Sequence record: OQ411014.1
Direction: 5' to 3' (one strand)
Length of the DNA stretch: 64,000 nucleotides
From: Escherichia phage EJP2
This document shows, piece by piece, positions 1-64,000 of the stretch (position 1 is the stretch's first letter; each line of letters begins with the position of its first letter). Position numbers and translations under genes: made by a program. Under the pieces are notes generated by a model that saw nothing but the letters and a program-made list of their open reading frames with translations, made no database searches and was not told the DNA's origin.

Positions 1-245
1 GAGTCCGGTAGTTGTGAAGTAAGTAAACGTCCATTATCGTCGAGCATTGCAAAACGGCGATACGCTACAGAACCGTCATCAAAAGTAATTGCCCCTTCAA
101 ATGCTTCCCATCCTTTGTTATATCTAAACATACCAGCACGTTGAGTGTCATTAGTAGCTTTGCTTGGTGCTTTAGGCACTTCAAGGAATGTAGCACTATC
201 AATGACTACACCACCTTCACCTTTAATTCTATATACACTAGCCAT
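1..245 (-). CDS. Tail-fibre-like protein, N-terminal fragment; gene runs past the window start
   Basis: Minus-strand ATG at 245-243 preceded by AAGGA RBS; frame open to position 1 (MASVYRIKGEGG...RAGMFRYNKGWEAFEG...). The G-x-x-RYN...W-x-FEG motif is typical of phage tail-fibre N-termini. Not in the ORF track because it is truncated. Confidence 0.45.
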   Translation of the reverse strand, partial: MASVYRIKGEGGVVIDSATFLEVPKAPSKATNDTQRAGMFRYNKGWEAFEGAITFDDGSVAYRRFAMLDDNGRLLTSQLPD

Positions 246-276
246 TTAATTGTCCTTAGAATAGATTTATATTAAG

Positions 277-284
277 TATTTATT
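277..284 (-). promoter_or_regulatory. Late-promoter-like motif AATAAATA on minus strand (tail-fibre fragment)
   Basis: Plus-strand TATTTATT, ~32 bp upstream of start 245. Confidence 0.3.
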
Positions 285-300
285 TGATGACCCCAAAAGA

Positions 301-327
301 AAAGGCCAACCGAAGTTGACCTTTTTT
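301..327. terminator. Hairpin terminator, C(UUCG)G tetraloop on the minus-strand RNA
   Basis: GGCCAAC-CGAA-GTTGACC stem-loop (one mismatch) flanked by A-run and T-run; lies after the 210-aa gene. Confidence 0.55.
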
Positions 328-338
328 CTAATTTCAAA

Positions 339-971
339 TTATAGGATTACATCTCCCCATTTAGCTGCTAGACGAACTGCTTCATAATCTTGTGCTGCAT
401 CAATTGCAGAACAGATTTCTTGTTCAGTGTCAAACAAGCCGTCACGATACAAGGAAATTTCCAAGTATAGTGCTTTGATTTCAGCAGCAGACATTACTAC
501 ATCATTTCCTGATTTATCACGAATAGAAAGACTTTCAATGCTTGGGTCTACTAGTAATTCAATTAGCAAACCTTGAAGTTCAAGTCTACCTTCACTAGAT
601 AGGTCAAATACATTCAAATCTTTTTCGTATTCAGATGTTGCGAGATAAGAACGATGTGCTTCAACACGTTGTTTCATCTCTGCACGAACGATTGCCAAAT
701 CCATTGGCTTGTAGGTATAGGTATTAATGATTTTACCTTCTACATCATCCATCACAACTTCTTTTTTCTCAAATTCGCAGAACTCACCAGTACCGACATA
801 ATTATCTTCTTGAATCCAAAAACCGTGAGTTAGACGCCCTTCGGCGTCTAACTTGGTAATGTCTCCAATAGTATAACCAGATACTAATGAACGTTGTCCT
901 ACGGTGGAACTTGTATATTTCACGAATTCCCATTGGTCGAGTTCGTTCTTGTTAACTACTACATAAACCAT
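339..971 (-). CDS. Hypothetical protein (210 aa), downstream of the giant fibre gene; possible fibre-associated protein
   Basis: ORF with strong RBS (AAGGAGATAAATCAA-ATG); no recognisable motif. Confidence 0.5.
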   Translation of the reverse strand: MVYVVVNKNELDQWEFVKYTSSTVGQRSLVSGYTIGDITKLDAEGRLTHGFWIQEDNYVGTGEFCEFEKKEVVMDDVEGKIINTYTYKPMDLAIVRAEMKQRVEAHRSYLATSEYEKDLNVFDLSSEGRLELQGLLIELLVDPSIESLSIRDKSGNDVVMSAAEIKALYLEISLYRDGLFDTEQEICSAIDAAQDYEAVRLAAKWGDVIL

Positions 972-995
972 TTGATTTATCTCCTTTAATTGATA

Positions 996-3900
996 TTATA
1001 CGTTACGTTGTGCAATAAACACGTCAATGGTAGAACCTACACCGCTGTATACTAACTGACAGATAGATACAGAGTTTGGAGTGGTGTTAATCGCAGTATC
1101 AGCACCAATCACACTATATGGAGGTGGTAGAGTTAGCGAGTGGTTACCAGTTGCGTCTTGTGTTACATATACGAACCAAGAACCTGCATATCCTGGGGTG
1201 ATTGGTAGGTTACCAACGGTAGTATCACCTGTTAGGGTAATGTTATACACGTTAGAAGTACCATCAGGAGTCCAAGTACCAGTTGCAGAAGCAGCCGGAG
1301 CAGCTTTAACTAGGTATTTGCTAGTACTTACCGATTCAGTTACTAGGTCGCCGATATCAGCAGTTAGTGTACCAGTTACTGTTAGGTTGTTAGCATTAAT
1401 TGTACCAGTACTATCAATATCAACAGCAGTTACTTTACCAGTGAAATCGGAGGTTCCAGATACAGTAAGGCTTGTAGCAGTGATTGCACCTGTGGTTACA
1501 GCAGCTAAGGTAGAAGTACCAGTTACTGTTAGAGTATCAGTTTCTAGACCGCCAGTAATTGCAGCACCATCAGCACTAACAGTTAGTTTACCACCAGTAG
1601 TTAGTGTAGTACCTACGCTCGCCGCAGCAGAGAAAGTAGCAGTACCAGTGCTGGATAGAGTACCAGTTACTGTGGTTGCACCAGTAATTGCAGCACCATC
1701 AGCACTAACAGTTAGTTTACCACCAGTAGTTAGTGTAGTACCAACTGTTGCAGCACCAGTAACTTCAAGAGTTACACCTTTCAAGAAGGAAGTGGAAGTA
1801 ACAGATTGTGCAACTAGATCAGAAGTACTTTGGTCTAGTGTACCAATGATACGACCATTAACAGTAAAGTCACCAGTACAAACTGCGTTACCGTTAAGCT
1901 GTAGGTTGTTGTTTACAGAACCACTTGCACCGATAACAGCAGAGTCAATTGTTGCTTGACCTTTAACTTCGAGTGTAGTACCAACAGATACCGCTTGGGA
2001 AGTTGTTACAGACCGTGGAGAAATATCACGACCAGTTAAGTCGATTTGAGCAGTGATAGTACCATCAACATCCAAGTTACCTGTGATGTGGGTGTTACCA
2101 GAAATCTCAGCAATATATTCTTCTTCGTCCCATACTAGAGTACCTACGTGTAGGTTTGTGGTAGAGGTCTTCTTGAAAGAAGCGGTTGCAGTTGCAGCAC
2201 CGTTCTGTGCGATATTACCAGCAGTTACTGTTAGGTCACCAGTAGTAATTGTTGCACCGTTATCAGAAGTTACAGAACCAAATTTACCTGCACCTGAAGC
2301 AGTGATTGCACCACCTAGGGTTGTTGCACCAGTAGTTACGGTTAGACCGTTATCAGAGGTTACAGAACCAAATTTACCTGCACCAGTACTGGTTAGAGTA
2401 CCACCAACAGTTGTGTTGCCAGTTACACCTAGTGTAGTACCAACAGTTGCACCAGCAGCAGTAGAAACACTATTAACAGATAGGTCAGCACCCGCGAGGT
2501 TTAGACCACCAGCAGGAGTGAATGTACCATTAACGGTCATGTCACCAGTTGCTACCGTGTTACCTGTGATATCTAGTGATGCTAGAGTTGCTTTACCTGA
2601 AGTACTTAGAGTACTAACAGATGTTGCATCAGCAGTTACATCAGCTAGGGTAGATGCACCAGTTACATTTAGTGTAGTACCGATATTTGCACTGTTTAGA
2701 GTTGCTAGACCAGAAGTACTTACAGTACTTAGGGAAGTATTACCAGATACACCTAGGGTTGTAGTAACGCTTGCAGCGTTCGCATTGACAGTTCCTAGAG
2801 TAGATACGCCAGTTACTTCTAGAGTAGTGTTAACTTTAGCACCGTTTAGTGTTGCCAAACCAGTAGTCGTTAGTGCATCAGTAGTTACATCAGCTAGGGT
2901 AGATGCACCAGTTACATTTAGAGAACCACCAACAGTTGTGTCGTTAGTACTGGATAGTGTTAGTGCACTTAGGTTAGTTGCACTTAGGTCGAATTGACCA
3001 TCAACAGTCAAATCACCAGTTACATGAGCGTTACCGAGAGAGTTAAGAGACTTAACAGTTACATCAGTTGTGCTTAGGTCGATTGCTCCAGCAGTTAGTG
3101 TACCAGTTGCATGGAAATCACCAGTTACGTTGGTAGATTTAGCAAGTTGTACAGTAGTTCCAGCAGTTGTAAAGGAAGCAGCAGATACAGCACCAGTTGC
3201 GGATACAGATGAAGCACCAATTGCACCAGCAGTTACACCAGCAAGAGTAGTTTCACCAGTTACTGCTAGAGTACCAGAAGCAGTTACATCAGCCAGGGTT
3301 GAAGCGGCAGATACAGTTACAGCACCTAGAGTTGCTTCGTCGCTTGCTAATTTAGGGAATGTATTTGTTTTAGCAGCATCAGTAGATACAAAACTTAAAG
3401 CAGTTACATCAGCACCAGATAAGTCAACAGTACCAGATACAGCTAGGTTGCCACCGATTGTTGCACCTTCAGTAGTCGTAATAGACTTGGAAGCAATATC
3501 AACAGAAGATAGGTCAAAACCACCAACTGGGGTAAATGTCCCATTAACTGTTAGGTTTTTATCAGCAACAACATCACTTGCTAGAGTTACTGTGCCAGCA
3601 CCAAGTGGAGCAGCTTGAACAGTTGCGGATTCTACCGAAGCACCTTTAACAATACCAGTTGCAGTAATGTTTGTTGCAGAGATATCACCAATGGATTCAA
3701 TACCGCCATTAGGCTTGAAAGAACCAGTTACAGTTAAGTCTTTTGCAGCGACTGCATTACTTGCCAATGTTACTGTACCAGCACCAGCAGCAGCACCTTG
3801 AATAGATGGAACAGTTGCAGTTGCAGCACTTACATCACCAGTTGCAGCGAAAGATACAGCACTGATATCACCAGTTGCATCAATATCACCAGCATTTACA

Positions 3901-6605
3901 GTACCAGCAGTGATGGTAGTACTAGATAGAGTTGGGATGGTGCTTTGTGCAACAGTTGCAGTAATAGATTTAACATTAATATCCGCAGCACTTAGGTCGA
4001 ATGTACCGTCAACAACAAGGTTTCCACCAACGTTTACGTTACCTGTAGTGGTTACAGATGCAGCATCAACAGCAGTAGTACTTAGGTCAATTGAAGCTGG
4101 GGTTAGAACACCAGAAATAGTTACGTCATTTGCAAAAGTGGTATTACCAGTAATGCTTGGAACAACTAATGAATCAGCAGTTACTGAAGCTAATGTTGAA
4201 GCACCAGTTACGCTTAGAGATGCAGCAGATGCAGCACCGATTGCAGAAGCACCAGTTACATTTAGAGAACCACCATTAACTTCACCAGTTGCAGTGACAG
4301 AAGCAGCAGTTACAGCACCAGTTGCCGCGACAGATTCAGCAGAAACGCCAGCAGTTGCTACAACAGAGTTCGGTGCGATATCAAGACCGTCAACGTTTGC
4401 AGCAGCAGTTACACCAGTAGTAGTACCAGTTACAACTAGGTCTTTAACAGTTACAGTTTGACCATTAACAGTTACGTTACCACCAATTGTTGCACCAGCA
4501 GTTGCAGTGATTTCACCTGTTACGCCTAGAGTACCACCAACAGTTGCGTTGCCAGTTACAGCAGCGTTACCACCTACAGATAGATCAGTACCAACAGTAG
4601 TGGTGGTTACAGATTCTAGAGTATTACCATTAAGGGCAGCAGTTGCTACAACAGAGTTAGGTGTTAGGTCTTGACCACTAACATCAACAGTTAGACCAGT
4701 TACAACACCAGTAAATTCAACATCAGCAAGAATTGATTTACCATCAACTTTTAGTTGTGGTTGTGCAGTACCGATAGTACTGTTACCTTGGATGTGAACA
4801 TAATCCATAGTGGATTTGCCTAGTGCAGTTAGACCAGCAGTACCACCAACGTTACCAACAGATGCGTTCTGTAGTAGTGCTTTATCAGCTACAAGGTCAG
4901 AAGTTGCGATTTTGTATGGTTCGATGCTGGATTTGGTGTCGCTTGGGCGAGCCGGATCGTTATATGCAAATTGTAAAATACCGTGGTTACCAGATTCGCC
5001 ATCAATAACGTTTAGAGTACTAAAGTTAGCGATTGAAGTTCTTGCACCAGTTAAGTTACCAGATAGAGTTAGGTTTTGTAGAGTACTTGGACCAGAAACA
5101 TTTAGAGATGTTGCATTAATATCAGTAAATGAAAGACCAGATACTGCACCAGTAATAATCAAATCACCAACTGTGGTTTTTTGTAGTACTGTATCACCAG
5201 TTACTTCTAGTTTTGGTGTTGCTTCACCAATAGTACTGTTACCAGTAATGCTTAGGTAATCAATAGTTGCTTTACCTAGTGCTTTTAGACCAGCAGTACC
5301 TGCTACATCACCAACTTCAGCAGCTTTAAGAACAGCTTTGTCAGCTACTAGATCAGAAGTTGCCATTTTGTATGGTTCGATACTTGATTTTGTGTCATTT
5401 GGACGAAGTGTGTCATTATAAGCGAATTGTACAATGCCGTGGTTTCCAGCAGTACCGTCATCAACAGTAAAAGTACTGAAGCGTGCTACTGAAGAGTTAC
5501 CACCAGTTAGGTTGCCACTCATGTTAACGCCAGCTAGAGTTGATGCACCAGATACGTTTAGAGTTGCTACGTTTAGGTCAGTGAATGAAAGACCAGATAC
5601 TGCACCAGTAATTGTTAGGTTACGAACTGTAGTATCTTGTAGTACTGATTTACCAGTTACTTCTAGGAAGTTATCAGCAGTACCAATAGTACTGTTACCA
5701 GCAATTTTTAGGTAATCGATTTTTGCATTACCGAGAGCGTGTAGACCGTGGTCATCGCCACCACCAACAACACCAACGGTTGCTACGTCAGTTTGGATAT
5801 CGTTGGTATCAATTTCTTGAGTACTAACTTTGTACGGCTCAAGGCTAGTTTTGATATCAGAAGGACGTAGTGGGTCGTTATATGTGAACTGAACACTACC
5901 AGTTTGACCGGAAACACGATATTGGTTTACGGATACAGTACTGTTTGCACCAGTTACGTTACCTTGGATAGTAGTTGCACCTTTAATGTTTACGTTGTTA
6001 AGATCACTTAGTGTTTTAACTTCGATGTTATTGAAAGTACCAGCATCCATAGTGTAAGTGCCACTTAGAGTACCATTGATTTCCACATCACCTAGTGTTG
6101 TTTTGCCAGTTACGTCTAGAGTACTGTCAAGTACTGCTGCACCTTTAGCATGTAGGGCTTCAGTAGTTGTACTACCTAGAGCTACAGTACTAGTTGGTTC
6201 AGTAGAAAGATTGCCATTAACTTTTGCATTACCAGATACGGTTAGGCTATCAGCAGAAGTTTCTTTAAATGAAGCACTACCAGTAGTTTGAGTAATATTT
6301 GAATTAAAAGTTGCTTCGGCATCAACAGCCAAAGTACCTTTAACACTTACTGTATCAGTTAGAGCGTCACCAAGAACGGTATTACCAGATACGTTAAGAT
6401 TTCCGAGATTAGAAGTACCAGTACTTGTAATGTCAGCGAATTGAGCAGAACCCGTCACTGTGATAGCAGTGAATGTGGCATCTGCGAAAGAAACAGTGCC
6501 TTCTACAGAAAGATTTTGCTTGAATACAGCATTACCCTTCAATAGTAGGTCTTTGTCAATCGTTGCTCCACCGAGAACGCCTAGATCAGTTTTAATTGAA
6601 TACAT
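996..6605 (-). CDS. Giant fibrous repeat protein (1869 aa), T/G/A/S/V-rich; putative tail fibre or adhesin
   Basis: Long ORF with GGAGGG RBS; T4-late-like motif upstream; internal ~153-aa tandem repeats (QF-x-YND-x-x-RP-x-D-x-K-S-x-EPYK three times) and many shorter repeats; low-complexity beta-rich composition typical of fibres. Confidence 0.75.
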   Translation of the reverse strand: MYSIKTDLGVLGGATIDKDLLLKGNAVFKQNLSVEGTVSFADATFTAITVTGSAQFADITSTGTSNLGNLNVSGNTVLGDALTDTVSVKGTLAVDAEATFNSNITQTTGSASFKETSADSLTVSGNAKVNGNLSTEPTSTVALGSTTTEALHAKGAAVLDSTLDVTGKTTLGDVEINGTLSGTYTMDAGTFNNIEVKTLSDLNNVNIKGATTIQGNVTGANSTVSVNQYRVSGQTGSVQFTYNDPLRPSDIKTSLEPYKVSTQEIDTNDIQTDVATVGVVGGGDDHGLHALGNAKIDYLKIAGNSTIGTADNFLEVTGKSVLQDTTVRNLTITGAVSGLSFTDLNVATLNVSGASTLAGVNMSGNLTGGNSSVARFSTFTVDDGTAGNHGIVQFAYNDTLRPNDTKSSIEPYKMATSDLVADKAVLKAAEVGDVAGTAGLKALGKATIDYLSITGNSTIGEATPKLEVTGDTVLQKTTVGDLIITGAVSGLSFTDINATSLNVSGPSTLQNLTLSGNLTGARTSIANFSTLNVIDGESGNHGILQFAYNDPARPSDTKSSIEPYKIATSDLVADKALLQNASVGNVGGTAGLTALGKSTMDYVHIQGNSTIGTAQPQLKVDGKSILADVEFTGVVTGLTVDVSGQDLTPNSVVATAALNGNTLESVTTTTVGTDLSVGGNAAVTGNATVGGTLGVTGEITATAGATIGGNVTVNGQTVTVKDLVVTGTTTGVTAAANVDGLDIAPNSVVATAGVSAESVAATGAVTAASVTATGEVNGGSLNVTGASAIGAASAASLSVTGASTLASVTADSLVVPSITGNTTFANDVTISGVLTPASIDLSTTAVDAASVTTTGNVNVGGNLVVDGTFDLSAADINVKSITATVAQSTIPTLSSTTITAGTVNAGDIDATGDISAVSFAATGDVSAATATVPSIQGAAAGAGTVTLASNAVAAKDLTVTGSFKPNGGIESIGDISATNITATGIVKGASVESATVQAAPLGAGTVTLASDVVADKNLTVNGTFTPVGGFDLSSVDIASKSITTTEGATIGGNLAVSGTVDLSGADVTALSFVSTDAAKTNTFPKLASDEATLGAVTVSAASTLADVTASGTLAVTGETTLAGVTAGAIGASSVSATGAVSAASFTTAGTTVQLAKSTNVTGDFHATGTLTAGAIDLSTTDVTVKSLNSLGNAHVTGDLTVDGQFDLSATNLSALTLSSTNDTTVGGSLNVTGASTLADVTTDALTTTGLATLNGAKVNTTLEVTGVSTLGTVNANAASVTTTLGVSGNTSLSTVSTSGLATLNSANIGTTLNVTGASTLADVTADATSVSTLSTSGKATLASLDITGNTVATGDMTVNGTFTPAGGLNLAGADLSVNSVSTAAGATVGTTLGVTGNTTVGGTLTSTGAGKFGSVTSDNGLTVTTGATTLGGAITASGAGKFGSVTSDNGATITTGDLTVTAGNIAQNGAATATASFKKTSTTNLHVGTLVWDEEEYIAEISGNTHITGNLDVDGTITAQIDLTGRDISPRSVTTSQAVSVGTTLEVKGQATIDSAVIGASGSVNNNLQLNGNAVCTGDFTVNGRIIGTLDQSTSDLVAQSVTSTSFLKGVTLEVTGAATVGTTLTTGGKLTVSADGAAITGATTVTGTLSSTGTATFSAAASVGTTLTTGGKLTVSADGAAITGGLETDTLTVTGTSTLAAVTTGAITATSLTVSGTSDFTGKVTAVDIDSTGTINANNLTVTGTLTADIGDLVTESVSTSKYLVKAAPAASATGTWTPDGTSNVYNITLTGDTTVGNLPITPGYAGSWFVYVTQDATGNHSLTLPPPYSVIGADTAINTTPNSVSICQLVYSGVGSTIDVFIAQRNV
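4600..6000 (-). repeat. Three in-frame tandem repeats of ~459 bp (~153 aa) inside the 1869-aa fibre gene
   Basis: Protein repeats (QF-x-YND..RP.D.K.S.EPYK ... GNSTIG ... ITGAVSGLSFTD) three times; DNA landmarks at ~4911, ~5368 and ~5829. Confidence 0.75.
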
Positions 6606-16846: not shown

Positions 16847-16875
16847 AAAAAGGAGCCTTTCGGCTCCTTTTTTTT
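16847..16875. terminator. Bidirectional hairpin terminator after the ClpA-like gene
   Basis: AAAAAGGAGCC-TTTC-GGCTCCTTTTTTTT; also terminates the convergent 3337-aa gene. Confidence 0.75.
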
Positions 16876-19800
16876 ATTTGATTAATCCAATAAGAATTAC
16901 AGGTGCAATATCCAAACTATCAGAATAAGTACTCAATGGGATTGGTTCATAACCATCACCGTATACTGCAATTTCATTAGTGTTACCTAAATTCAATCCA
17001 GTACTGGTATACGTTACATCCTTTTCGTAATAATTCTGAACAGTACCGTTATAAGCTCGAACAACGAAGTTGTTTTTGCGAACAAGCATTTGTTCTGCAT
17101 TAGATAGGATAATATCGTCAGGTACAACACCAGGCATTGTAGCGATACCATTTTCATAGGTCATGGTGCTTGCCATCTTCGGCTGACTTACGTGAGTGAA
17201 GCTGTCAAACATTGACTTATAAACAACAGTAACAGTACTGTTAGTGTTAATATACACACCATCAACTAGTGGTTTACTATAGATCCAAGAACCATTGTTA
17301 GCAGTAGGGTTAATTTCAGCTACATCGTATTCAAATACTGAAATTTCCAACGCGTCGGTCATTTTAGTACGAACCAATTCACTTAGTACACCTTTACCGT
17401 ACACTGGTAGGTAATATCCATTATCAACCACAGTTCCATCTTCTAGTGTTTGTGTCTCATTAGTACTGTACCATACATCATAGTCATTGGTAGTTAGTTC
17501 TGGTTCATAATTACCACCAATTAAGGAAGTGTCATAGAACACATCATAATCTAGAGCATCGACTCTGTAAGAACGGTTATTAGTATAACGAGTAATTCCA
17601 CCAGCACTAAACTCTGGGTCATTGAAAGATGTAACTCTAACAATGTTGATACTAGTTGGTTTGTTCTGGTTGTAAAGTGATTCATCAGTACTGTTATAAG
17701 TACTAGTGAAAGTTAATCCACCAATAGTTACAGTATTACCAGATACCGAAGTTACTTTAAACAACTTAGGACGATTAGCATCTTTAATTGTTGCTACACT
17801 CAATACAGTTTTCCAAGAACCATCGTTAATAGCGACTGCGTAATCTGAATTGTCTGGGACAAATACAGCTACCGTTTCGCCAACAACGAAATCATTATCA
17901 CCGTCAAGTTCAACAACACCACTTACTGAAGTTACGTTCTTAATACGATATGAATATTGAATTTCATTCTTTTCCAAAATGCTTCTATTCATGTATTCAA
18001 GAGCAACATCATAACGTGGAATACTTACAAGGGCTTCTGAGCGATTATATGGGTTTTGTACGATATAACCTTCAATATTAAAGTTACCTTGATCACGTAA
18101 TTGTGTCTGTACTGAAGTATCAAATCCATATCCATCAACTGTGAATCTTAGCTGTGCCATATCACGTTTAGATGGGTTAAGTTCTGAAATGTCTACAAAT
18201 ACAGGATCGTTAGTACTGTTAGCGACACCAACAACGGAGTTAATAATAGTTTTAGTTTGTGATTCTAGAGCTAAGTTATCGAATGCGTTTTTATCATCAA
18301 AGAATACTTCTTTATTCAAGCCTGACATGATTTGTAAGAAATCACTATATAGTGGGTTCTTATCATCTTCTGGAACGTCATCAAGTGATGGTTGGCTTAG
18401 GCGAACCATATCCCCATCAGTGATATACACTTCTTCCATATATTCTTCTATGCCAACATTCGAAGGAATGCTATAATCTTTTCCTGGAGTAGTTTCACTC
18501 ATTAGGAAAACATATTTCCTAGGCATCAACACTACTGCATAAGCATCAACATCAAGATTCTCTAATACTTTCTCTGCTGCACTATACGGGTCAGTTTCAT
18601 CAGGATTATAAGTCCCTCTAAGTGCTGATAGAACGTGTACTGCATCAGTATAGAAACGATTAGATTCTGGATTATCATCAGTTTCAGGGATTACATATTT
18701 CCATGTATATAAACCGTATTCATATTCCATGTACTCTAGAATCTCAATGTGAGAGAATCCAGGGTTTGCTTCCTTAACTTGATCATAAATCAAATCATAC
18801 ATTGGTTTGCTGTAAGAGATATAACCATAGTTTTCACCATTGCTTGCACTAAATCCAAACGGCAACCTTGTGCTTGGGTTATCACTCAGTACTAGACCTT
18901 TAAATGGACAACCTACTTCAGAACCAATAGTTTCATCAGATTTGGAAGTTGTTAGCTTCAAACGGTTTGAAAGCGTGTTGTACTGAACATAGTTGCGTAC
19001 TTCACTAACCGATTCAGATTTCTCTTCTGCTTCTGCAATTACACGATTAAGTGTAGCTGTAAATTCATCAGATGCTTCAACATCATTAATTAGTGTTGCA
19101 TACATTTGGTCTAAACCATATTTCAAACCACTACTAATATTCATGTTCGGATAGTACTGCGTAATACCGTTCATGATTAATGTTTCCAACTCAGCATTAT
19201 TAATTTCAGGGAAAGTATATGCATAACGCTGGAGCATGTAGTGGGAGCCTTTTACAAGGAAGTCACCAGTATTAGATTGGTATTTCTTGTTCACGTTTTC
19301 TAGTGTTGTTATATCTGCCATATCGGAAGATGGTTTGCACTGGAAGTTGTCAAAGTCAAGAATAACATCAATCTCTTGGAAACGGCGGTTTGGTAGTACG
19401 AAGTTATTTGGTAGTGAGCCTACGATTTCCCACTTCTGACTTACATCGTTGAATTGAGCATATTCGTAATCCCAAATATCTTTTTGTGTTTTAACCCAAG
19501 CACCATCAACATAGATATAACCGTTAGGATCTAAATCGTTTAATAGACCGTTGATTTCATCTTCATCAGATGTCTTCTGCTCTATTTGTGAACGGATTTT
19601 AGTTCTGTATGGTTTCACTTCTTCAAAGTACTGTACGATTTCATTTATTAAATTACCATCAGTAGTTGATCTTTGTTGTAGTGATTGGTCTAGACCAATA
19701 ATATAAATGTAAGAGGTTTTGAATACCCAGTCCACGACTTTCTGCTCAGTGTGTACGTACTTAACCATGTCAAATACTACAGTACTTTGTACAGAGTTGA

Positions 19801-26887: not shown

Positions 26888-26922
26888 TTTATTCTCCATA
26901 AAATTCATTTCTTCATTTGTTT

Positions 26923-26930
26923 TATTTATA
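26923..26930 (-). promoter_or_regulatory. T4-type late promoter motif TATAAATA on minus strand (3337-aa gene)
   Basis: Plus-strand TATTTATA, ~36 bp upstream of start 26887. Confidence 0.5.
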
Positions 26931-26938
26931 AAAGAAAT

Positions 26939-26960
26939 AAAGGCGACCGAAGTCGCCTTT
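26939..26960 (-). terminator. Hairpin with UUCG tetraloop after the gp6-like gene
   Basis: GGCGAC-CGAA-GTCGCC with T-rich tract on the minus strand. Confidence 0.55.
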
Positions 26961-26964
26961 AATG

Positions 26965-30500: not shown

Positions 30501-30506
30501 CAAAAA

Positions 30507-30530: not shown

Positions 30531-30533
30531 AAA

Positions 30534-41716: not shown

Positions 41717-41742
41717 AAAGGGAGCTTTATGCTCCCTTTTTT
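41717..41742. terminator. Bidirectional terminator between the gp46-like and endoVII-like genes
   Basis: AAAGGGAGC-TTTAT-GCTCCCTTTTTT. Confidence 0.7.
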
Positions 41743-42263: not shown

Positions 42264-42464
42264 AGTACTATCATTGTCATCCACCAGCATTCAGTACTTC
42301 TATTATGCATGTTCTGTGTATACAGGAATCACAAAAGTACTAATGACCTTTCTGAAATCCTTGCAGTACTAAGGATGTCCAAAACTCTTGGAGAATGTAC
42401 TTAGTTGCAGTACATAGAGAAGAGTACTATGCTCACGTAATGAAATTATTTTCGAAAAAGTACT
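42264..42464. repeat. Cluster of six AGTACT(A) palindromic hexamers in non-coding DNA
   Basis: AGTACT at 42264, 42293, 42336, 42365, 42423 and 42459; five are AGTACTA; between the endoVII-like start and the promoter at 42471. Confidence 0.6.
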
Positions 42465-42470: not shown

Positions 42471-42500
42471 ATGAGATGCAAACATAAAATGTGATATAAT
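42471..42500 (+). promoter_or_regulatory. Sigma70-type promoter firing rightward into the ORF-free locus
   Basis: ATGAGA 42471-42476, TGATATAAT 42492-42500; no ORF with RBS downstream for ~700 bp. Confidence 0.65.
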
Positions 42501-43040
42501 ATAAGTACAAGTTCATAAGGTCAGTTTTTACTGATACAGATTAAACCCAATTCACTCGAAAATGTAGAGGATGGATGAGTAGACTTATGACTACGTAGTG
42601 CAAAAGAAACCCGTTAGGAGATGGCATAGTTTGTACCACCCACGGCAATGTGGCACTTTAAATGAACGCGATAAGCAGACAGACGTTCACTAGATAGACA
42701 TATAAGGCTACCTTACCACACTTGCTAAGGGAGTTCAGTTCAGAACTTGTTTTGAGCTTGAACAGCATTAAGATTCGATTGTATGGATTTTAATGTATGC
42801 GTACTAAGACTACGACCGTTGCACATGACCGTGATAGAGAGAAACAGAGCAACCCGCTTTCGTTCTGACTTGTTCAGAAATTCACGATACAATAATTCCG
42901 ATGCTATCAGCGTCAAGCAATATTTCAGATCCTTAATTGGGTCTTTTTTATTGTCTTCATTCCCCTGCGGGGGGATGAAATTGCCTCAACAAATCTCGTC
43001 AAGTATTAAAGTATTAATTAGTTCTTAATAATTAAATTAT

Positions 43041-52728: not shown

Positions 52729-53823
52729 ATGCCTAAATCATCAATGACTCAACAAGAATTCGAAACTAAAATGACCGAGAAGTATGGTAAAGTAGATTTC
52801 AGTACTATGACGTTTAAGTTGAGTAAAACTACAATCAATTGTCCTAAGTGTGGAAACGCAAATACCAAATCTGCAATCCGACACATTGAATGTACTTGTG
52901 CAAACTGTTTTTCCAATATGTCACAACGTTCTAGTAATGAAATTTTCATCGAAAAAGTAGAAAACAAATTCGGAGCAGGTAAGTTCAAATTCGACAAACT
53001 AAATTATCATAACGCCAAAACTCCGGTTGAATTGTTCTGCACTGAACATAATGCATATTTCACCATTGTCCCAAATAAAATGCTCACTGGACATGGTTGT
53101 AATGTATGTAATAAAAATGAAGCACATACTACTGAAAGTTTCATTACAATTGCGAAAAAGAATTATGGCACTACCACGTTTGACTTCACTAATACAGTGT
53201 ATGTTAACCGCCAAACTAAAGTATCAATCCATTGTAACGAAGGTAATCACGAATGGTTAGTTAACCCAGCAACTATAATCGCCGGAATAAACCAATGTGG
53301 TGTCTGTAAACGCAAATCTGGTATGACAACGGAACGTTTTATTAGTGATGCAAACTCTGTACATGATAATGCATACACATATGAGAACACTGTTTATAAA
53401 AGAAGTGAATGTGTCGTAGATATCACATGTCCAAAGCATGGAAACTTTACACAATCACCAAAGTCACACCTTCGTGGTCGTGGATGTCCAAAGTGTGGTA
53501 AGTATGGTTATCAACAAACACAGCCAGGTTACTTCTATATTCAGAAGTTGACGAATGAGAACAAAACTGTGTATAAGTACGGAATCACTGGTGACATGAA
53601 ACGTCGCGTCCAAGAACAATCCCGTGATTCTGTATTTGAACACGAAGTGCTTGTTGAAATGTACTTTGAAGACGGAAAGAAACCAATGGCATTAGAATCA
53701 CTGTTGAAGAACTATATTGAGAGTGGAGTCACCAGTACTGAAGAATTGCCATCAGGATTTTCGGAAACCTTTGATGAGAAGTACTTAGATGAAGTACTAT
53801 CCATAGTAAATAACTTTAGGTAA
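52729..53823 (+). CDS. Homing-endonuclease-like protein: N-terminal zinc-ribbon repeats plus C-terminal T5orf172 (GIY-YIG-related) domain
   Basis: Four repeats of C..C / HG-F...P..H-x-G-x-GCP-x-C type; C-terminal GYFYIQKL...VYKYGITGDMKRRVQE block; own near-consensus sigma70 promoter at 52658-52686. Confidence 0.6.
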   Translation: MPKSSMTQQEFETKMTEKYGKVDFSTMTFKLSKTTINCPKCGNANTKSAIRHIECTCANCFSNMSQRSSNEIFIEKVENKFGAGKFKFDKLNYHNAKTPVELFCTEHNAYFTIVPNKMLTGHGCNVCNKNEAHTTESFITIAKKNYGTTTFDFTNTVYVNRQTKVSIHCNEGNHEWLVNPATIIAGINQCGVCKRKSGMTTERFISDANSVHDNAYTYENTVYKRSECVVDITCPKHGNFTQSPKSHLRGRGCPKCGKYGYQQTQPGYFYIQKLTNENKTVYKYGITGDMKRRVQEQSRDSVFEHEVLVEMYFEDGKKPMALESLLKNYIESGVTSTEELPSGFSETFDEKYLDEVLSIVNNFR

Positions 53824-54276: not shown

Positions 54277-54582
54277 ATGCAAATATGTTACGTAATCACC
54301 AATAAAGCATGGCCTGAGTGGGTAAAAATTGGATTCACATCTAAATCAGAGATGAAATCCAGACTAAGTACATACCAGACGGGTTCACCATTTAGAGATT
54401 ATGAAGTATATCATGAAGTACTATTTGATGATGCGAAATCCGCTGAAAAAGAAGTACATAAGCGTTTAAAACAAATGAATGCAACTAGATCACCAGGGAC
54501 TGAGTGGTTTAAAATGAGTAAAAAAATAGCAGCCAATATGATTGATTCAGTTCTAGATGATATAGAGAACGACTTGCTATAA
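54277..54582 (+). CDS. Stand-alone T5orf172-domain protein (101 aa), homing-endonuclease-like
   Basis: ICYVITNKAWPEWVKIGFT...RLSTYQTGSPF...EKEVHKRL...GTEWF matches the T5orf172 pattern; GGGAGA RBS. Confidence 0.6.
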   Translation: MQICYVITNKAWPEWVKIGFTSKSEMKSRLSTYQTGSPFRDYEVYHEVLFDDAKSAEKEVHKRLKQMNATRSPGTEWFKMSKKIAANMIDSVLDDIENDLL

Positions 54583-57338: not shown

Positions 57339-60300
57339 ATGTACGTAGATGGATATATGGAACGTAAGCGTGGTTCAGAAGTTCTTCACGTAGCTGAACG
57401 TGTCAATGGTAAACGTGTACTACGAGAACTAGATCCAGTGTACGAGTACTATGTTGAGTCACCGTACGGTACACAAAAGACAATTCACGGAACTATGGCT
57501 GAGAAGTTTGAGTTCAGTACATATCGTGATATGAAAGCATCCCTAGAGCGTCACGCCGGATGCAAAATCTTTGAATCTGACTGTAACGTCACCTTCAAAA
57601 CACTAGCTAAACGTTATATGGGTAAAGCATCACCAGACCTGAACGTATTGTTCTTCGATATCGAGACAGACTTTCATGAAAAGTTTGGTTATGCACCAAC
57701 ACATGATCCATTCAACCGTGTAACTGCAATTTCTCTGTATCAAAGTTGGACTGGTTGTGATTATGTTCTAACACTACCACCTGCAAGTATGAGTCTTATC
57801 CAGGCACAAGAAATTGTGAATGAACTCAACGCAGAGACTAATGATGAAAACAGTAAAGTAATTCTTTACACTGACGAAAAAGAGATGTTCATCGAATTCT
57901 TCTCTCTAATGCAGGACGCAGATGTATTGTCCGGCTGGAACAGTGAGTTCTATGATATTCCTTACATGATCAACCGTACTAAGAAGCTATTCAATGAAGC
58001 AATGTTGGCTCATTGGTGTCTTTGGAACAAAAAACCTGTTTCCCGTGAAGCTGATAACTTTGGTAAAGTTGTTGTTACATATGACCTAGTAGGTCGTGTA
58101 CACCTTGACTACTTAGCACTTTACAAGAAACACGCCGGACAAGTTGAACAGTCCTATCGTCTAGATGATATTGCTGAGAAAGTAACTGGCGAAAACAAAG
58201 TTGCATACGATGGTTCTTTGAACAAACTATACAACGAAGATTACAAAATGTTCTTACGATATTCTAAGCAGGATAGTATCCTACTGAAGAAAATTGATGA
58301 GAAGATGGACTTCATCAGTCTACATAACCGACTAGCTCATAAAGAATGTGTACTAATCAGTACTACAATGGGTTCGGTAGCACTAATCGACACATCTATC
58401 ATCAACAAAGCACACAAACGTGGTGAAGTAGTTTTTGATAAGAAGAATCAGGACGAAGTTGAAGTTGATGATCGTTATGATTTTATGGGTGACGATAATG
58501 ATGATGGTGAAGAAGAGAAAGTAGCAGCAAAAGCAGCGGGTGCATGGGTACAAGATCCAGTACTGGGTTTAGTTGACTTCTTAGGATGTACTGACTTTAA
58601 CAGTCTATATCCAACAGTTCTTCGTTCACTAGGTATGAGTACTGAATGTATTATCGGGCAATTGCGTCATGATTATACTGAAGCACACCTTGAGAAACGT
58701 GTTGCAGACCAACGTGCTAAATCTAAATCCAAAGCATTTGAACCGGATTGGACAGCAGCATGGCATGGTTTGTTTGCTAGTATTGAGTTCACAATGGTTC
58801 GTGAGAAATCACAAAGCCTAATCAATGTTGATTTGGAAGATGGTAGTACTTTCCAAGCAACTGGTGAACAACTATATGAACTAATCTTTGCTGAAGATAG
58901 TACTATTGTTCTTTCCGCTAACGGAACACTATTTGATAAAACCAAAAATGGTGTAATCCCAGAGATCCTTACTGAATGGTACTCTGAGCGTAAATGTCAG
59001 CAGAAGATGGTCATCGATTATAAACACATGTACAGTGACGGTTGGGAATTGCCTTCATCTTCTCTTGACAAGATTGAAGCTGCTATGCAAAACTACACAG
59101 CAGGTACAGAATTTTACCGTACTAACTTACATGATGATGACCCAGTATATCTCCTACGTATTGCACTAACTAATGCAAACTATGAAGATGTAGCTAAACT
59201 TGTGGTTGAGAACGGTCTAGTACTGAAAGATGGTCGTCTATTCTGTAAGAAAGAAGATAAAGACTACTTCAAGAAACAAAGTGCGTTCTGGAAACAGAAC
59301 CAGCAGATTCGTAAGATTCTTCTGAACTCCCTCTATGGTGCACTACTAAACAAAGGTTCTCGTTTCTTTGATAAGCGTCTAGGTCAGTCTGTAACCCTAA
59401 CAGGTCGTAGTATGACTAAACACATGGCATCTCGTATCAATGAGATTGTTACTGGTGAATACAACCACGAAGGTGGATGTGTAATCTATGGTGATACCGA
59501 CTCCGTATATTTCAGTGTTGCTCACTATATGAAAGAACAAGGTTTTGAATTCAACCTAAACCGTACTGAAGTAGTTGATTTGTATGTCAAGATTGGTGAT
59601 GAAATGGGTGAAAACTTCTATGAATTCATGAATGATAGCTTCAACACTGGTATTGAGAAAGGTAAATTGGTTGGTGCAGATCTTGAGATGGTTGGTTCAC
59701 GCGGACTATTCCTGAAGAAGAAGCGTTATGCTATTCTGAAGTACTGGGAAGATGGTTTCCGTAAAGATGAAAATGGTGAAGTTGGTGAAATCAAAGCGAT
59801 GGGATTGGAAATCAAACGTTCCGATACACCTAAGTACATCCAGAACTTCCTACAAAGTACTTTGATTGCACTACTTGTTGGTGAATCCGAAGATGAACTT
59901 CGTGCTCGTGTTCGTGAATTCAAATGTACATTCAAGGATAAACCATCACATGAGAAAGGTGCTCCACGTACAGTGAAGAAGTACACTCATCACGAGGAAG
60001 AGTATCAGAAAACTGGTAAATGTTCCGTATCACACGTTCTAGCTGCAATTCAGTGGAACAAACTATGTGGAATTTACGAAGATAAAACTGTACCAGAAGC
60101 AACTGACGGTACTAAAGTAATCGTCTGTGATCTAAAGCCAAACCCTACAGGTATTCTGAAAATTGGTTATCCAATTGACTGTGTTGAATATCTACCTGAA
60201 TGGTTCCTTGACTTACCATTTGATGATGATAAAATGGAACAATCAATTCTAACCAAGAAACTAAACAACATCTTTGGTATTCTTGATATGGATATTGGTA

Positions 60301-60350
60301 TCAATGAGAAGAGTACACTAGCACTTGACAGTGGTTTCTTCGAGTGGTAA
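57339..60350 (+). CDS. 43: Family-B DNA polymerase, gp43-like (1003 aa)
   Basis: Exo I motif FFDIETD; polymerase motif C YGDTDSVYF; motif A-like region; size typical of T4-type polymerase; RBS AAGGAGA. Confidence 0.9.
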   Translation: MYVDGYMERKRGSEVLHVAERVNGKRVLRELDPVYEYYVESPYGTQKTIHGTMAEKFEFSTYRDMKASLERHAGCKIFESDCNVTFKTLAKRYMGKASPDLNVLFFDIETDFHEKFGYAPTHDPFNRVTAISLYQSWTGCDYVLTLPPASMSLIQAQEIVNELNAETNDENSKVILYTDEKEMFIEFFSLMQDADVLSGWNSEFYDIPYMINRTKKLFNEAMLAHWCLWNKKPVSREADNFGKVVVTYDLVGRVHLDYLALYKKHAGQVEQSYRLDDIAEKVTGENKVAYDGSLNKLYNEDYKMFLRYSKQDSILLKKIDEKMDFISLHNRLAHKECVLISTTMGSVALIDTSIINKAHKRGEVVFDKKNQDEVEVDDRYDFMGDDNDDGEEEKVAAKAAGAWVQDPVLGLVDFLGCTDFNSLYPTVLRSLGMSTECIIGQLRHDYTEAHLEKRVADQRAKSKSKAFEPDWTAAWHGLFASIEFTMVREKSQSLINVDLEDGSTFQATGEQLYELIFAEDSTIVLSANGTLFDKTKNGVIPEILTEWYSERKCQQKMVIDYKHMYSDGWELPSSSLDKIEAAMQNYTAGTEFYRTNLHDDDPVYLLRIALTNANYEDVAKLVVENGLVLKDGRLFCKKEDKDYFKKQSAFWKQNQQIRKILLNSLYGALLNKGSRFFDKRLGQSVTLTGRSMTKHMASRINEIVTGEYNHEGGCVIYGDTDSVYFSVAHYMKEQGFEFNLNRTEVVDLYVKIGDEMGENFYEFMNDSFNTGIEKGKLVGADLEMVGSRGLFLKKKRYAILKYWEDGFRKDENGEVGEIKAMGLEIKRSDTPKYIQNFLQSTLIALLVGESEDELRARVREFKCTFKDKPSHEKGAPRTVKKYTHHEEEYQKTGKCSVSHVLAAIQWNKLCGIYEDKTVPEATDGTKVIVCDLKPNPTGILKIGYPIDCVEYLPEWFLDLPFDDDKMEQSILTKKLNNIFGILDMDIGINEKSTLALDSGFFEW

Positions 60351-62520: not shown

Positions 62521-62521
62521 T

Positions 62522-62818
62522 ATGACTAAACTACGAGCAAACACGGATTACGTTATCGTTGAACTAGTAGGTACTAAGAGCAACGTTACCGAAGCAGGTA
62601 TTATCATGTCCAACGTTGAACAACCAACTCTAGGTCGAGTCATCAGTGTTGGAGCAGGTAAATACTTACCTAATGGTGAACGTCAAGAACATAACATCAT
62701 CGATGGTGATATTGTTATTTTCGGTAAGTCATCACTCAACCAACCAATCCAGATTGATGAAGATAATGTATACTACGTCATGAAGGTTGATGAAGTATTT
62801 GGAACCTATAATGTCTAA
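62522..62818 (+). CDS. GroES-like co-chaperonin (Cpn10, ~98 aa)
   Basis: Aligns along its length to bacterial GroES, including the mobile-loop region (GTKSNVTEAGIIMSNVEQPTLGRVISVGAG) and IDGDIVIFGK. Start at ATG 62522 with GGGAGA RBS; track ORF starts at 62387. Confidence 0.75.
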   Translation: MTKLRANTDYVIVELVGTKSNVTEAGIIMSNVEQPTLGRVISVGAGKYLPNGERQEHNIIDGDIVIFGKSSLNQPIQIDEDNVYYVMKVDEVFGTYNV

Positions 62819-63530
62819 AAAACTACCATTTTGGATAATCCCCGCTCACTGGGGGTTGTCCGGTAAAGCAAAGAAAATTGCTCAAATCAACTATTACAGT
62901 ACTGATCAGTACCAAGCAGATTATGAATGTGCAGAACATATCTATTTGACTGAATATGAAATTGATTCAGCACGTAATGATATTGCGTTGCGTCATAGTA
63001 AGATTCAGAATCTGGAATACAGACTAAACAAACTATCCATTGATGAAAAGCACGGTCGAATCACTGAAAACGAACAAAAGAACAAAGCACTTGACATTCG
63101 TTTGGAAGAGAAAGATATTAGTGAAAAGGATTATGACCGTGAAAAACTTGAACTCCTTCCTGATGGTGAAGAGAAGAGTATTGGAACTATTGAGTACTTG
63201 TTCAAGTACCATGAAATTACTGAACGTGAATATAGCAAAGAACTATATACGTTGCGTAAAGAGCCGTGGATGGATTTCGATTTAGAATTGAATCAAGAAA
63301 CGAATGAGATTGAGTTATCATTTGACTATAATGAATTCTTCTGGAAGAAGTTGAAACATGATGGTCATCCAGGTAATGATGAATATGAAATCATCGAAAA
63401 CTTCATTCGTGATTGGGGACGTAAGATGGCATCAGATGAATACGTAGATGATTACGATTCTAAACTGATGAATGAGAATACTGAACCAGATCTTACTGGA
63501 CTACCGGAAGGTTATCGAGTTTATAAATGA
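62811..63530 (+). CDS. Hypothetical protein (~239 aa)
   Basis: ORF whose ATG overlaps the GroES-like stop codon; no recognisable motif. Confidence 0.45.
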   Translation: MSKKLPFWIIPAHWGLSGKAKKIAQINYYSTDQYQADYECAEHIYLTEYEIDSARNDIALRHSKIQNLEYRLNKLSIDEKHGRITENEQKNKALDIRLEEKDISEKDYDREKLELLPDGEEKSIGTIEYLFKYHEITEREYSKELYTLRKEPWMDFDLELNQETNEIELSFDYNEFFWKKLKHDGHPGNDEYEIIENFIRDWGRKMASDEYVDDYDSKLMNENTEPDLTGLPEGYRVYK

Positions 63531-63534
63531 CAAG

Positions 63535-63567
63535 AAAAAAGGAGAACATTGCGTTCTCCTTTTTTTT
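63535..63567. terminator. Bidirectional terminator between convergent genes
   Basis: AAAAAAGGAGAAC-ATTGC-GTTCTCCTTTTTTTT. Confidence 0.75.
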
Positions 63568-63583
63568 ATACTATACTGAAAAA

Positions 63584-63955
63584 TTAATCAAGAATAGCAG
63601 GAATCTGCTTGTGAATCTTGATTGCGAAGTTACCTGCTTGAGCAGGAGTCGCAGATGATTCCAATTTAACTTCACCACCAGTACTGGTCATGAATGGAAC
63701 ACCTGTTAGGTCATCAATTAGTAGACGGCCTTGGTCGATTGCAGTAGTTGGTACGCCTTGGAAAGTAGTAGCGTCACGGTCAAATACGTCAGCACGTTCG
63801 ATTAGGAAAGTGAGAGCACTTGCACCAGTAACGGAAGCAGCACCAGAGATACCATTTGGAGCGTTTTTCCAACCAACAACATCAGCAGCTTGTGCAATGA
63901 GGGAGGTGGATAGAATTACCGCACGTTGTTGAACAACGTCGATAACACGCTTCAT
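63584..63955 (-). CDS. Hypothetical protein (123 aa)
   Basis: Complete minus-strand ORF (in-frame stop upstream at 63989-63991); ends at a bidirectional terminator. Confidence 0.45.
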   Translation of the reverse strand: MKRVIDVVQQRAVILSTSLIAQAADVVGWKNAPNGISGAASVTGASALTFLIERADVFDRDATTFQGVPTTAIDQGRLLIDDLTGVPFMTSTGGEVKLESSATPAQAGNFAIKIHKQIPAILD

Positions 63956-64000
63956 ATTTGTTTGAGCAGCGAAAGCAGCAGTGTAGTCAACTTCTACGGT

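Follow-up and report, generated by a model that had tools for sequence, protein, structure and literature searches.

Why should a restriction-type palindrome be the commonest hexamer of a phage? In a 64,000-bp stretch of Escherichia phage EJP2 (record OQ411014.1; hereafter the window, positions 1–64000), the word AGTACT, which is the site of ScaI and of its E. coli isoschizomer Eco255I, occurred 175 times, i.e., 2.73 times per kb. Short palindromes are normally purged from phages, whereas this one is the top hexamer of a 350-kb virus, is shared across at least five genera and reshapes both codons and proteins. We show here that a continuing, clade-specific selection acting on the DNA keeps AGTACT dense, overriding synonymous codon preference and dipeptide composition. 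As to what is selected, we propose, with a probability of roughly 45%, that positive selection has made AGTACT (optimally cAGTACTg, G being avoided at -1) a recognition word of duplex DNA, read by a putative symmetric, probably dimeric and clade-specific phage protein that shuts off early promoters and marks the phage chromosome.

When all 4096 hexamers of the window were ranked, AGTACT was the most frequent, and the next two, GTACTG and CAGTAC, were its own overlaps. Mononucleotide composition (38.5% G+C) predicted 21.2 copies, which makes the observed number 8.3 times the composition expectation, and dinucleotide shuffles gave 24.3 ± 4.1 copies with a maximum of 34. A previous inspection of the letters alone (the sequence-only reading) had called the word strongly over-represented from local tallies of 9 copies in the polymerase gene, 4 near 13 kb and 6 in non-coding DNA at 42264–42464; these tallies were all exact, and the over-representation was confirmed for the whole window (175 vs. 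21–25 expected). The same reading had allowed that codon usage may contribute and had proposed a comparison with codon-shuffled genes. By our own greedy call the window contains 46 open reading frames (ORFs), with a coding fraction of ~96%, and 168 of the AGTACT sites (96%) lie in coding sequence. Shuffling synonymous codons within genes yielded 41.0 ± 6.0 sites (maximum 61) and shuffling codon order 34.6, while two codon-context models, in which each codon is drawn given its amino acid and the one or two bases before it, and which are conservative because they were trained on the real sequence, yielded 47.9 and 59.9 (48 ± 6 and 60 ± 6). The ratio of observed to expected was thus far from 1 (168 vs. 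41 ± 6): codon usage does contribute, lifting the expectation approximately two-fold (from 21 to 41) and leaving a four-fold excess unaccounted for; this bears out at the DNA level the earlier suggestion that the hexamer itself is favoured. An artefact of codon or dicodon usage was ruled out by the three codon-aware nulls together with the context-dependent choice of codons described below.

The enrichment was also singular. Against the synonymous-codon null AGTACT reached z = 24, the highest value among the 4096 hexamers, and the best unrelated word, CTGCTG, reached 8; no other palindromic hexamer in the window exceeded ~1.8 times its expectation. An equal enrichment of many unrelated words, the pattern that would have spoken against a special role, was therefore not seen. 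The 18 words that differ from AGTACT by one base stood near expectation, with ratios of 0.55–1.52 and no systematic enrichment or depletion, and this held for the transition neighbours AATACT (34 vs. 33.7 expected, ratio 1.01) and AGTATT (39 vs. 35.2, ratio 1.11), neither of which was depleted. Since the neighbours are neither enriched nor depleted, recognition of AGTACT must be exact.

In the coding sequence the word occupied every frame, with 108 sites read as AGT-ACT, 42 as xxA-GTA-CTx and 18 as xAG-TAC-Txx, and codon choice was bent towards it in each. AGT-ACT encoded 108 of the 165 Ser-Thr dipeptides in the window; the serine codon was AGT in 86% of cases before ACT vs. 27–30% elsewhere, the threonine codon was ACT in 90% after AGT vs. 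54% otherwise, and the leucine codon was CTG in 38% after GTA vs. 4%. When we considered only attainable positions, i.e., those at which the protein permits AGTACT by synonymous change, 168 of 303 (55%) were occupied, with 38–65% occupancy in each frame and similar values in structural, replication and function-unassigned genes.

The bases next to the word were constrained too, and symmetrically: C was favoured at -1 and G at +1 (43–45%), while G at -1 and C at +1 were avoided, G being the rarest flanking base overall at -1 (6–12%). Flank counts at synonymous positions, pooled over the window and six loci from the clade, showed that NNY codons preceding AGTACT ended in C in 71% of cases vs. 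37–39% elsewhere, that in Val-Leu pairs with CTN codons leucine was CTG in 41% of frame-2 sites vs. 9% of non-sites, and that G at -1 was nearly absent. The extended palindrome CAGTACTG was found 38 times in the window vs. 2.7 expected under the codon null. The symmetry of the flanks points to a reader with two-fold symmetry that recognises duplex DNA rather than to a signal at the level of mRNA or translation.

The polymerase region of the window matched RaK2-like jumbo myoviruses of Enterobacterales, the closest being Erwinia phage Hallingskeid (80.7% nucleotide and 87% protein identity in this region), with Asteriusvirus, Alcyoneusvirus and Munch-like phages at 74–77%. The whole 366,158-bp genome of Hallingskeid (record PQ464590) was assembled from nine pieces. 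AGTACT was again the most frequent hexamer, with 1313 copies vs. 118 expected from composition (11-fold), 412 copies of CAGTACTG and an occupancy of attainable coding positions of 0.50–0.62 in every 50-kb segment. The proteome itself was marked by the word. Ser-Thr was the most over-represented dipeptide (872 vs. 532 expected, z = 15, ~1.7-fold), whereas the reversed Thr-Ser was not over-represented (487 vs. 534); Val-Leu (972 vs. 659, z = 12.7), Gln-Tyr (z = 8.2) and Lys-Tyr (z = 6.8) were also in excess, and among the dipeptides tested Ser-Thr ranked first, Gln-Tyr second and Val-Leu fifth. The over-represented dipeptides were exactly those able to encode AGTACT, and their reversed forms were at or below expectation. 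Approximately 90% of the Hallingskeid sites were intragenic, and early genes offered 7.7 attainable positions per kb vs. 4.8 in late genes. Between genes the distribution was strongly uneven, with 10.5 AGTACT per kb of intergenic DNA in the early region (0–50 kb) vs. 0.4–2.4 in the replication, structural and late regions. Adjoining the early region, at 23,542–33,003, stand eight tandem paralogous genes (~380 amino acids) annotated as 'regulator of chromosome condensation', with RCC1-like repeats.

The sequence-only reading had asked whether related phages share the bias, and it proved common to every enterobacterial RaK2-like member sampled. In samples of 40–50 kb per phage, AGTACT was the top palindrome, at 5.5–9 times the first-order Markov expectation, in Hallingskeid, fENko-Kae01, A4 (Asteriusvirus), RaK2 (Alcyoneusvirus), CBB (Mimasvirus) and Serratia phage BF (Eneladusvirus). 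Its density in clade genomes, about one per 280–370 bp, was ~45 times that in a 50-kb sample of E. coli K-12 (3 copies, 0.06 per kb). There was no enrichment in the distant jumbo relatives Stenotrophomonas phage CM1 (9 vs. 11 expected), Agrobacterium phage Atu_ph07 (2 vs. 5) and Xanthomonas phage XacN1 (0 vs. 7), nor in T4 (12 vs. 9) or a KVP40-like phage (8 vs. 7). G at -1 was avoided in all clade members, and CBB and BF favoured A instead of C as the flank, a drift that would be expected if the reader co-evolves with its word.

Despite this constancy of density, the individual sites turned over. When 52 kb of orthologous sequence was aligned by codon (74% identity), 132 AGTACT were counted in the window and 132 in Hallingskeid, 53 of them in common, so that 40% of sites were kept vs. 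22% for the average hexamer. Where a Ser-Thr dipeptide was conserved in both, the site was present in both genomes in 32 cases, in the window only in 13, in Hallingskeid only in 7 and in neither in 9, which corresponds to an occupancy of ~0.65–0.74 per genome, nearly independent between the two. Codons were better conserved inside AGTACT sites than outside them (AGT 84% vs. 68%; ACT 72% vs. 56%). The nine sites of the window polymerase gene were all found in Hallingskeid, and only three to five of them in Kae01, A4 or RaK2; gains and losses in this gene were mostly synonymous changes at conserved residues, e.g., GAG-TAC-T vs. GAA-TAC-T or GAG-TAT-T. Since sites turn over while density stays constant, the density is an equilibrium, upheld in each lineage by a directional force that persists, and not an inherited relic. 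A search of IMG/VR for closer relatives on which to base a polymorphism test returned 121Q and RaK2 only.

Against the usual behaviour of phage DNA this is a conspicuous exception. Twenty-four of the 64 palindromic hexamers were absent from the window, among them AAGCTT (0 vs. 21 expected), GGTACC (0 vs. 8–20) and CAGCTG (0 vs. 8–17), CTGCAG occurred once, GCGC was absent (0 vs. 30–88 expected) and GATC was reduced to 0.35 times expectation (84 vs. 224–244). These absences and depletions therefore indicate strong classical restriction avoidance beside one large exception, AGTACT, and suggest that the window DNA is safeguarded by avoiding sites, not by modifying its bases throughout. Avoidance of AGTACT itself was ruled out by its 8.3-fold enrichment in the window and 11-fold enrichment in Hallingskeid. 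Unrelated coliphages behaved in the opposite way: between 40 and 80 kb of each genome, AGTACT was approximately five-fold depleted in T5 (2 vs. 11.8 expected) and rV5 (2 vs. 9.2), in line with the ScaI-type enzymes that exist in enterics. This suggests that enterobacterial phages are under real selective pressure from restriction of the ScaI/Eco255I type, and makes the enrichment in the jumbo phages more surprising. The earlier remark that enrichment of a palindrome is unexpected in a phage was thus well founded, given both the 24 missing palindromes and the avoidance of this very word by T5 and rV5.

In the early regions of relatives, the surplus of sites between genes traced to a promoter layout that is conserved. 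In the first 21 kb of Hallingskeid we found ~30 early promoters with an AGTACT box fused to the -10 element, nearly all oriented with the early genes, and ~18 of these had a second box beside the -35. In one layout (family A), (A/T-rich)-AGTACT-A-TTGACA-N9-AGTACT-Gn-(T/C)ATAAT with a 17-bp spacer, the downstream box lies at -20 to -15, its final T and the next G forming the TG of an extended -10, and the upstream box lies at -43 to -38, the two being 22 bp apart. In the other (family B), the upstream box overlaps the first T of the -35 (AGTAC-TTGCAA or TTGACT), the box-to-box distance is 20 bp and AGTACTG(n)TATAAT follows. Both families were present in 121Q and RaK2. A 63-nt family-A promoter was 90–98% identical between the Hallingskeid and Asteriusvirus genomes, far above the conservation of proteins, and occurred in 5–12 copies per genome; in two of the records listed, the match lay inside an annotated terminal repeat. 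The pattern AGTACTATTGACN10AGTACT was found in 2 of 2.9 million IMG/VR contigs, namely 121Q and RaK2, and twice in 596 Gb of bacterial genomes, at or below chance and never in enteric genomes. In these relatives, AGTACT is thus an integral, fixed-register part of early promoters and scarce near middle and late promoters, and its boxes overlap core promoter elements at conserved positions, as operators do. One CBB segment (300–335 kb) contained no double-box promoter, so that the design is not confirmed for Mimasvirus or Eneladusvirus.

These findings led us to favour a DNA-binding protein, which was also the first suggestion of the sequence-only reading. It remains the best-fitting explanation, given the symmetric flanks and the fixed promoter boxes of relatives. 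The putative reader would be a symmetric, sequence-specific protein that binds AGTACT, and the promoter boxes would most likely act as its operators, through which early transcription is shut off. Shut-off is preferred to activation because the early promoters of the clade are already near-perfect sigma-70 promoters (an A/T-rich, UP-like tract, TTGACA, 17 bp, TGnTATAAT) and because the two boxes bracket the -35 while sharing one face of the helix. Intergenic DNA of the middle and late regions may be kept poor in AGTACT so as to escape repression. More speculatively, the ~1,000–1,300 intragenic copies could let this protein load onto the phage chromosome from end to end, and AGTACT could serve as a mark of self-identity that protects or organises phage DNA. 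In its most far-reaching form, which we consider doubtful, the hypothesis would have sequence self-marking take the place of the chemical self-marking of T4-type phages in the RaK2-like jumbo phages, which derive from T4-type ancestors and have no modified cytosine: a putative phage protein would read the density of cAGTACTg (~1/300 bp in the phage vs. ~1/15 kb in the host), coat and protect the phage chromosome while that of the host is shut down or degraded, and turn early promoters off via the paired boxes.

Several observations weigh against a dedicated DNA-binding protein. A search for the reader found none: the proteins that flank the Hallingskeid phage sigma gene had no Pfam DNA-binding domain, and neither CBB_511 (HTH_37, the only annotated helix-turn-helix regulator beside the CBB sigma gene) nor the PrlF-like CBB_476 had a homologue in Hallingskeid. 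The T5orf172/GIY-YIG proteins of the window were rejected as candidates for their lack of clade specificity (PMC7824862). The promoter evidence comes from relatives, and the window contained no early double-box promoter, as it covers late and replication genes. Because the whole 55-nt promoter is conserved, the boxes are inseparable from it, and they could be read by RNA polymerase or by a phage sigma factor instead of a separate repressor. Outside promoters the sites showed neither cooperative spacing nor helical phasing, and repression alone leaves the intragenic location of ~95% of sites unexplained. Finally, the six-site non-coding array at 42264–42464 is not conserved in relatives and is thus lineage-specific, so that it adds little weight. 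Nonetheless, no rival accounts jointly for the palindromy, the promoter placement and the clade specificity as well as a duplex-binding protein does.

The first of the rivals, that AGTACT is the target of a phage-encoded modification (e.g., by a solitary methyltransferase), serving as a GATC-like mark of self or strand age and as protection from restriction of the ScaI/Eco255I type, appears unlikely. Only the exact hexamer is enriched, as is typical of recognition by methyltransferases and restriction enzymes, clade members encode two to three DNA methyltransferases (PMC3622015, PMC5259590, PMC11780129), and the avoidance of AGTACT by T5 and rV5 makes the site look dangerous in these hosts, where the jumbo phages must tolerate ~1,000 copies. 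However, a comparison of native and amplified Hallingskeid DNA by nanopore sequencing detected modification at GATC and CCWGG only, where a motif with ~1,300 sites should have shown, and in the Mimasvirus Kaldavass the modified motifs were GATC, CCWGG and TGCAT; strand breaks were reported in neither (PMC11780129). RaK2 lacks a hydroxymethylcytosine pathway, and RaK2-like phages lack the hydroxymethylase and glucosyltransferases (PMC3622015). Moreover, protection alone would render the sites neutral without selecting for them. The data from Hallingskeid and Kaldavass thus point against modification or nicking at AGTACT, and the alternative raised by the sequence-only reading, a modification protein as the reader, found no support in them.

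Likewise unlikely is an action of AGTACT on single-stranded DNA, either as a start site for a DnaG-type primase (template 5'-AGTACTG-3', primer pppAGUACU) or as a Chi-like signal that attenuates a helicase-nuclease and loads UvsX, the palindrome working on both strands and from either end. The density of one site per 280–370 bp on each strand, the Poisson spacing and the apparent selection on number, as for Chi and uptake sequences, would suit such a signal; the G favoured at +1 creates the CTG triplet that enterobacterial DnaG uses, and genes for gp46/gp47, endonuclease VII and a T4-type replisome lie in the window. A single-strand signal, however, has no need of a palindrome (palindromes make up only 64 of the 4096 hexamers) and leaves the fixed placement in early promoters and the scarcity in late intergenic DNA unexplained, and CM1, XacN1 and Atu_ph07 have the same replication module without the bias. 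The Chi sequence of E. coli was not enriched either: its 7 copies in the window were high relative to composition, yet against the codon null the counts were 4 and 2 vs. 1.5 and 1.3 expected, which was not significant. Nor does AGTACT resemble the asymmetric, oriented words of Chi-like hotspots, both the word and its flanks being palindromic.

A non-adaptive molecular drive, in which a bias of repair or gene conversion in a recombinogenic pool of phage DNA converts near-cognates to a functionless AGTACT, is less probable again. The rapid turnover and the nearly independent equilibrium occupancy of the lineages are what a constant directional force would give, DNA uptake sequences, whose build-up has been attributed to drive, offer a parallel, and several GIY-YIG and HNH nucleases are present in the clade. 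Against this, the one-mismatch neighbours, including AATACT and AGTATT, were not depleted, unlike the CTAG/CCWGG signature of very-short-patch repair, so that a drive of that type is not supported. Neither the fixed promoter register nor the sparing of late intergenic DNA is expected from drive, and a nuclease that cuts AGTACT would erase the site by conversion, not spread it.

We assign a low probability, slightly below that of drive, to AGTACT as an element of the promoter or polymerase, read by host RNA polymerase or by polymerase with a phage sigma-70-family factor, the intragenic copies being weak binding or pause sites. The downstream box does overlap the extended -10 TG and the upstream box the proximal UP and -35 region, and CBB and Hallingskeid share a conserved phage sigma (41% identity). 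The promoter consensuses published for CBB and GAP32 (RpoD-like, TGAAACG/-10 and ATAAATA), however, lack AGTACT (PMC5259590). Palindromes are unusual for elements recognised by sigma factors, and the 95% of sites that are intragenic lie in either orientation with no -10 nearby.

A host protein of Enterobacterales that binds AGTACT and is exploited or titrated by the phage makes a poorer candidate still. The nucleoid-occlusion factor SlmA, whose site GTGAGTACTCAC has an AGTACT core between a conserved GT at -3/-2 and AC at +2/+3, with G/C next to the core, comes to mind; the bias is a trait of jumbo phages of Enterobacterales alone, and early promoters must act before any phage protein exists. 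The flanks speak against SlmA, as there was no preference for GT at -3/-2 (G at -3 in 20% and T at -2 in 31%, both at background), the G found at -1 in its site was the most avoided base, and GAGTACTC occurred only 3 times, so that SlmA sites were rejected; more generally, other enterobacterial phages avoid AGTACT or are neutral to it, and no enterobacterial genome showed the double-box promoter pattern. Lastly, a mere by-product of codon, codon-pair or mRNA-level preferences is scarcely credible, for although the preferred ACT, GTA and AGT codons lift the expectation from 21 to 41 and 96% of sites are coding, the codon-aware nulls left a four-fold excess (z ~21–24), all three frames were occupied at 38–65% of their attainable positions, the word and its flanks are symmetric, and AGTACT is also enriched in early intergenic DNA.

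Returning to a self-marking word read by a protein, a close statistical parallel is that of DNA uptake sequences (the USS of Pasteurellaceae and the DUS of Neisseria). These are also short exact words at ~1–3 per kb, present in several coding frames, shifting codons and peptides, turning over at equilibrium and restricted to clades, and AGTACT matched them in density, use of all frames, effect on peptides, clade limits and turnover, a resemblance that lies in sequence statistics only. Uptake sequences act as a tag of self-DNA that is read by a protein, and we propose a similar role for AGTACT; unlike it, they are non-palindromic 9–12-mers that are recognised by a competence receptor and serve the import of DNA into cells, whereas AGTACT is a 6–8-bp palindrome of a virulent phage, occurs in promoters as well and is linked to no uptake process. 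Chi (GCTGGTGG), KOPS and GATC (Dam/SeqA/MutH) are likewise exact oligomers, selected genome-wide and dependent on density, that mark a cell's own DNA for enzymes of DNA metabolism. Chi and KOPS differ in being asymmetric and oriented with replication, AGTACT having no orientation; GATC, like AGTACT, is a palindrome and serves several different processes, but it works via methylation, of which none was detected at AGTACT in relatives.

Among cluster A mycobacteriophages, stoperators also repeat the site of one regulator throughout the genome, including an early promoter, and silence transcription globally. They are, however, asymmetric sites of 13–14 bp, present in ~20–35 copies per genome, mostly intergenic and oriented with transcription, and they serve lysogeny, whereas here we have ~1,300 palindromic hexamers, ~90% of them intragenic, in phages without any sign of lysogeny and with a repressor that is hypothetical; as a 6–8-mer palindrome with no bias of orientation or of position along genes, AGTACT does not belong to the stoperator class. 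With the ScaI/Eco255I site it shares the hexamer and reverses the direction, an 8–11-fold enrichment standing in place of depletion. The likeness to the hydroxymethylcytosine-based discrimination of T4 (Alc, endonucleases II and IV) is one of proposed function only, namely telling own from host DNA during host shut-down; in place of the modified base of T4, RaK2-like phages would, on our hypothesis, use the density of a word (PMC3622015). Full-text literature searches combining AGTACT or CAGTACTG with phage terms retrieved no description of this bias, and the word is unmentioned in the RaK2, CBB and fEgEco12 papers and in the jumbo-phage reviews searched. Thus, genome-wide selected words are known (uptake sequences, Chi, GATC), while we could find no precedent for a restriction-type palindrome that is enriched throughout a phage genome and also serves as a promoter box.

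If a protein does read AGTACT, well-sampled phages that are being considered for therapy contain a major unrecognised DNA-reading activity, which may show how an unmodified T4-type phage distinguishes its own DNA from that of the host and silences its early genes. In practical terms, the word is a simple metagenome diagnostic for the RaK2-like clade, extreme sensitivity to restriction of the ScaI/Eco255I type is predicted unless a counter-measure exists, and codon-optimised or recoded genomes of these phages may lose an essential signal.

Within the window, the 175 sites were dispersed in a manner that fits a Poisson process: the per-kb variance was close to the mean, nearest-neighbour distances were exponential, and the only periodicity was 3, reflecting coding frames, with no phasing at 10–11 bp, which rules out regular or helically phased spacing. 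Density was nearly even along genes, across gene lengths, on both strands and between genes, and a dependence on gene position, length or strand was likewise ruled out. The Poisson spacing and this even spread point to apparent selection for how many sites there are rather than for where they lie. The DNA polymerase gene (57339–60350, plus strand) carries its nine sites at 57445, 58359, 58559, 58638, 58845, 58899, 59219, 59740 and 59856, and the stretch near 13 kb its four at 13097, 13139, 13318 and 13576. In the gp46 (SbcC-like) gene (39569–41713, plus strand), 10 of 13 attainable positions were occupied, with groups at 40586/40616/40649 and 41014/41023, and in the gene for a 3344-amino-acid virion protein (16874–26908, minus strand) 33 of 57. 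A tail-fibre-like ORF of 1869 amino acids (996–6605, minus strand) holds 25 sites (4.5 per kb), including pairs 9 bp apart at 2601/2610 and 2715/2724; the recurrence of these pairs at a 114-bp interval (2601–2729) suggests an internal tandem repeat in the protein.

The non-coding array at 42264–42464, between the divergent endonuclease VII gene (41727–42218, minus strand) and an extended -10 promoter, comprises sites at 42264, 42293, 42336, 42365, 42423 and 42459, with start-to-start distances of 29, 43, 29, 58 and 36 bp and three near-sites (GTACT or AGTACA) close by. A Poisson estimate from the density of the window predicts ~0.55 copies in 200 bp vs. the 6 observed. The sequence-only reading had taken this cluster as an argument for the hexamer; the six sites are real, yet the counterpart of the array holds none in Hallingskeid, none in Kae01, two in A4 and two in RaK2, which rules out its conservation, and late intergenic DNA is otherwise poor in sites. 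The promoter directly 3' of the array (42471–42500, plus strand) is sigma-70-like, with ATGAGA, 18 bp and TATAAT preceded by TG, and the last AGTACT box falls at approximately -48 to -43.

This promoter (AAAATGTGATATAAT) drives a conserved non-coding element of ~450–540 nt, from 42507 to ~43070 on the plus strand, 3' of the array, that has a terminator-like hairpin. Orthologues were found in three loci of relatives (L001, 7247–7783; L002, 5767–6295; L003, 3787–4339) and paralogues in Hallingskeid near 52.9, 119.5, 276 and 341.3 kb, where the same promoter precedes them; in all, 61 phage records of the RaK2-like clade contained the element, with ~4–5 partial or complete copies per genome, mostly under no annotation or under tiny, likely spurious ORFs. 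It was more conserved than the neighbouring genes, with long identical stretches between genera whose polymerase genes share ~75% nucleotide identity, and RNAalifold on eight sequences gave 93 pairs, with compensatory changes in 45 of the 93. In Rfam no family reached the gathering threshold anywhere in the window, relaxed E-values adding only chance-level matches. The element looks like a candidate for an undescribed family of large structured phage RNAs, and the 81-amino-acid ORF inside it (42783–43028) is probably spurious.

The remaining gene content was T4-like in its order: gp55 (late sigma), gp47/gp46, endonuclease VII, baseplate hub, portal, protease, scaffold, major capsid protein, tail fibre, polymerase and clamp. 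Directly 3' of the major capsid gene lies an ORF of 364 amino acids (52729–53823, plus strand) that shows treble-clef zinc-finger-like matches plus a weak T5orf172 domain at its C terminus (T5orf172/MUG113, GIY-YIG-like). At the same position A4, Kae01 and RaK2 have a longer ORF and Hallingskeid one of only ~130 amino acids, all of them candidate homologues, and because of this patchy presence among relatives we suggest that it is a mobile homing-endonuclease gene. Nearby, a stand-alone T5orf172/MUG113 protein of 101 amino acids (54277–54582, plus strand) was conserved; T5orf172/GIY-YIG proteins of the type seen in the window are not specific to the clade (PMC7824862).

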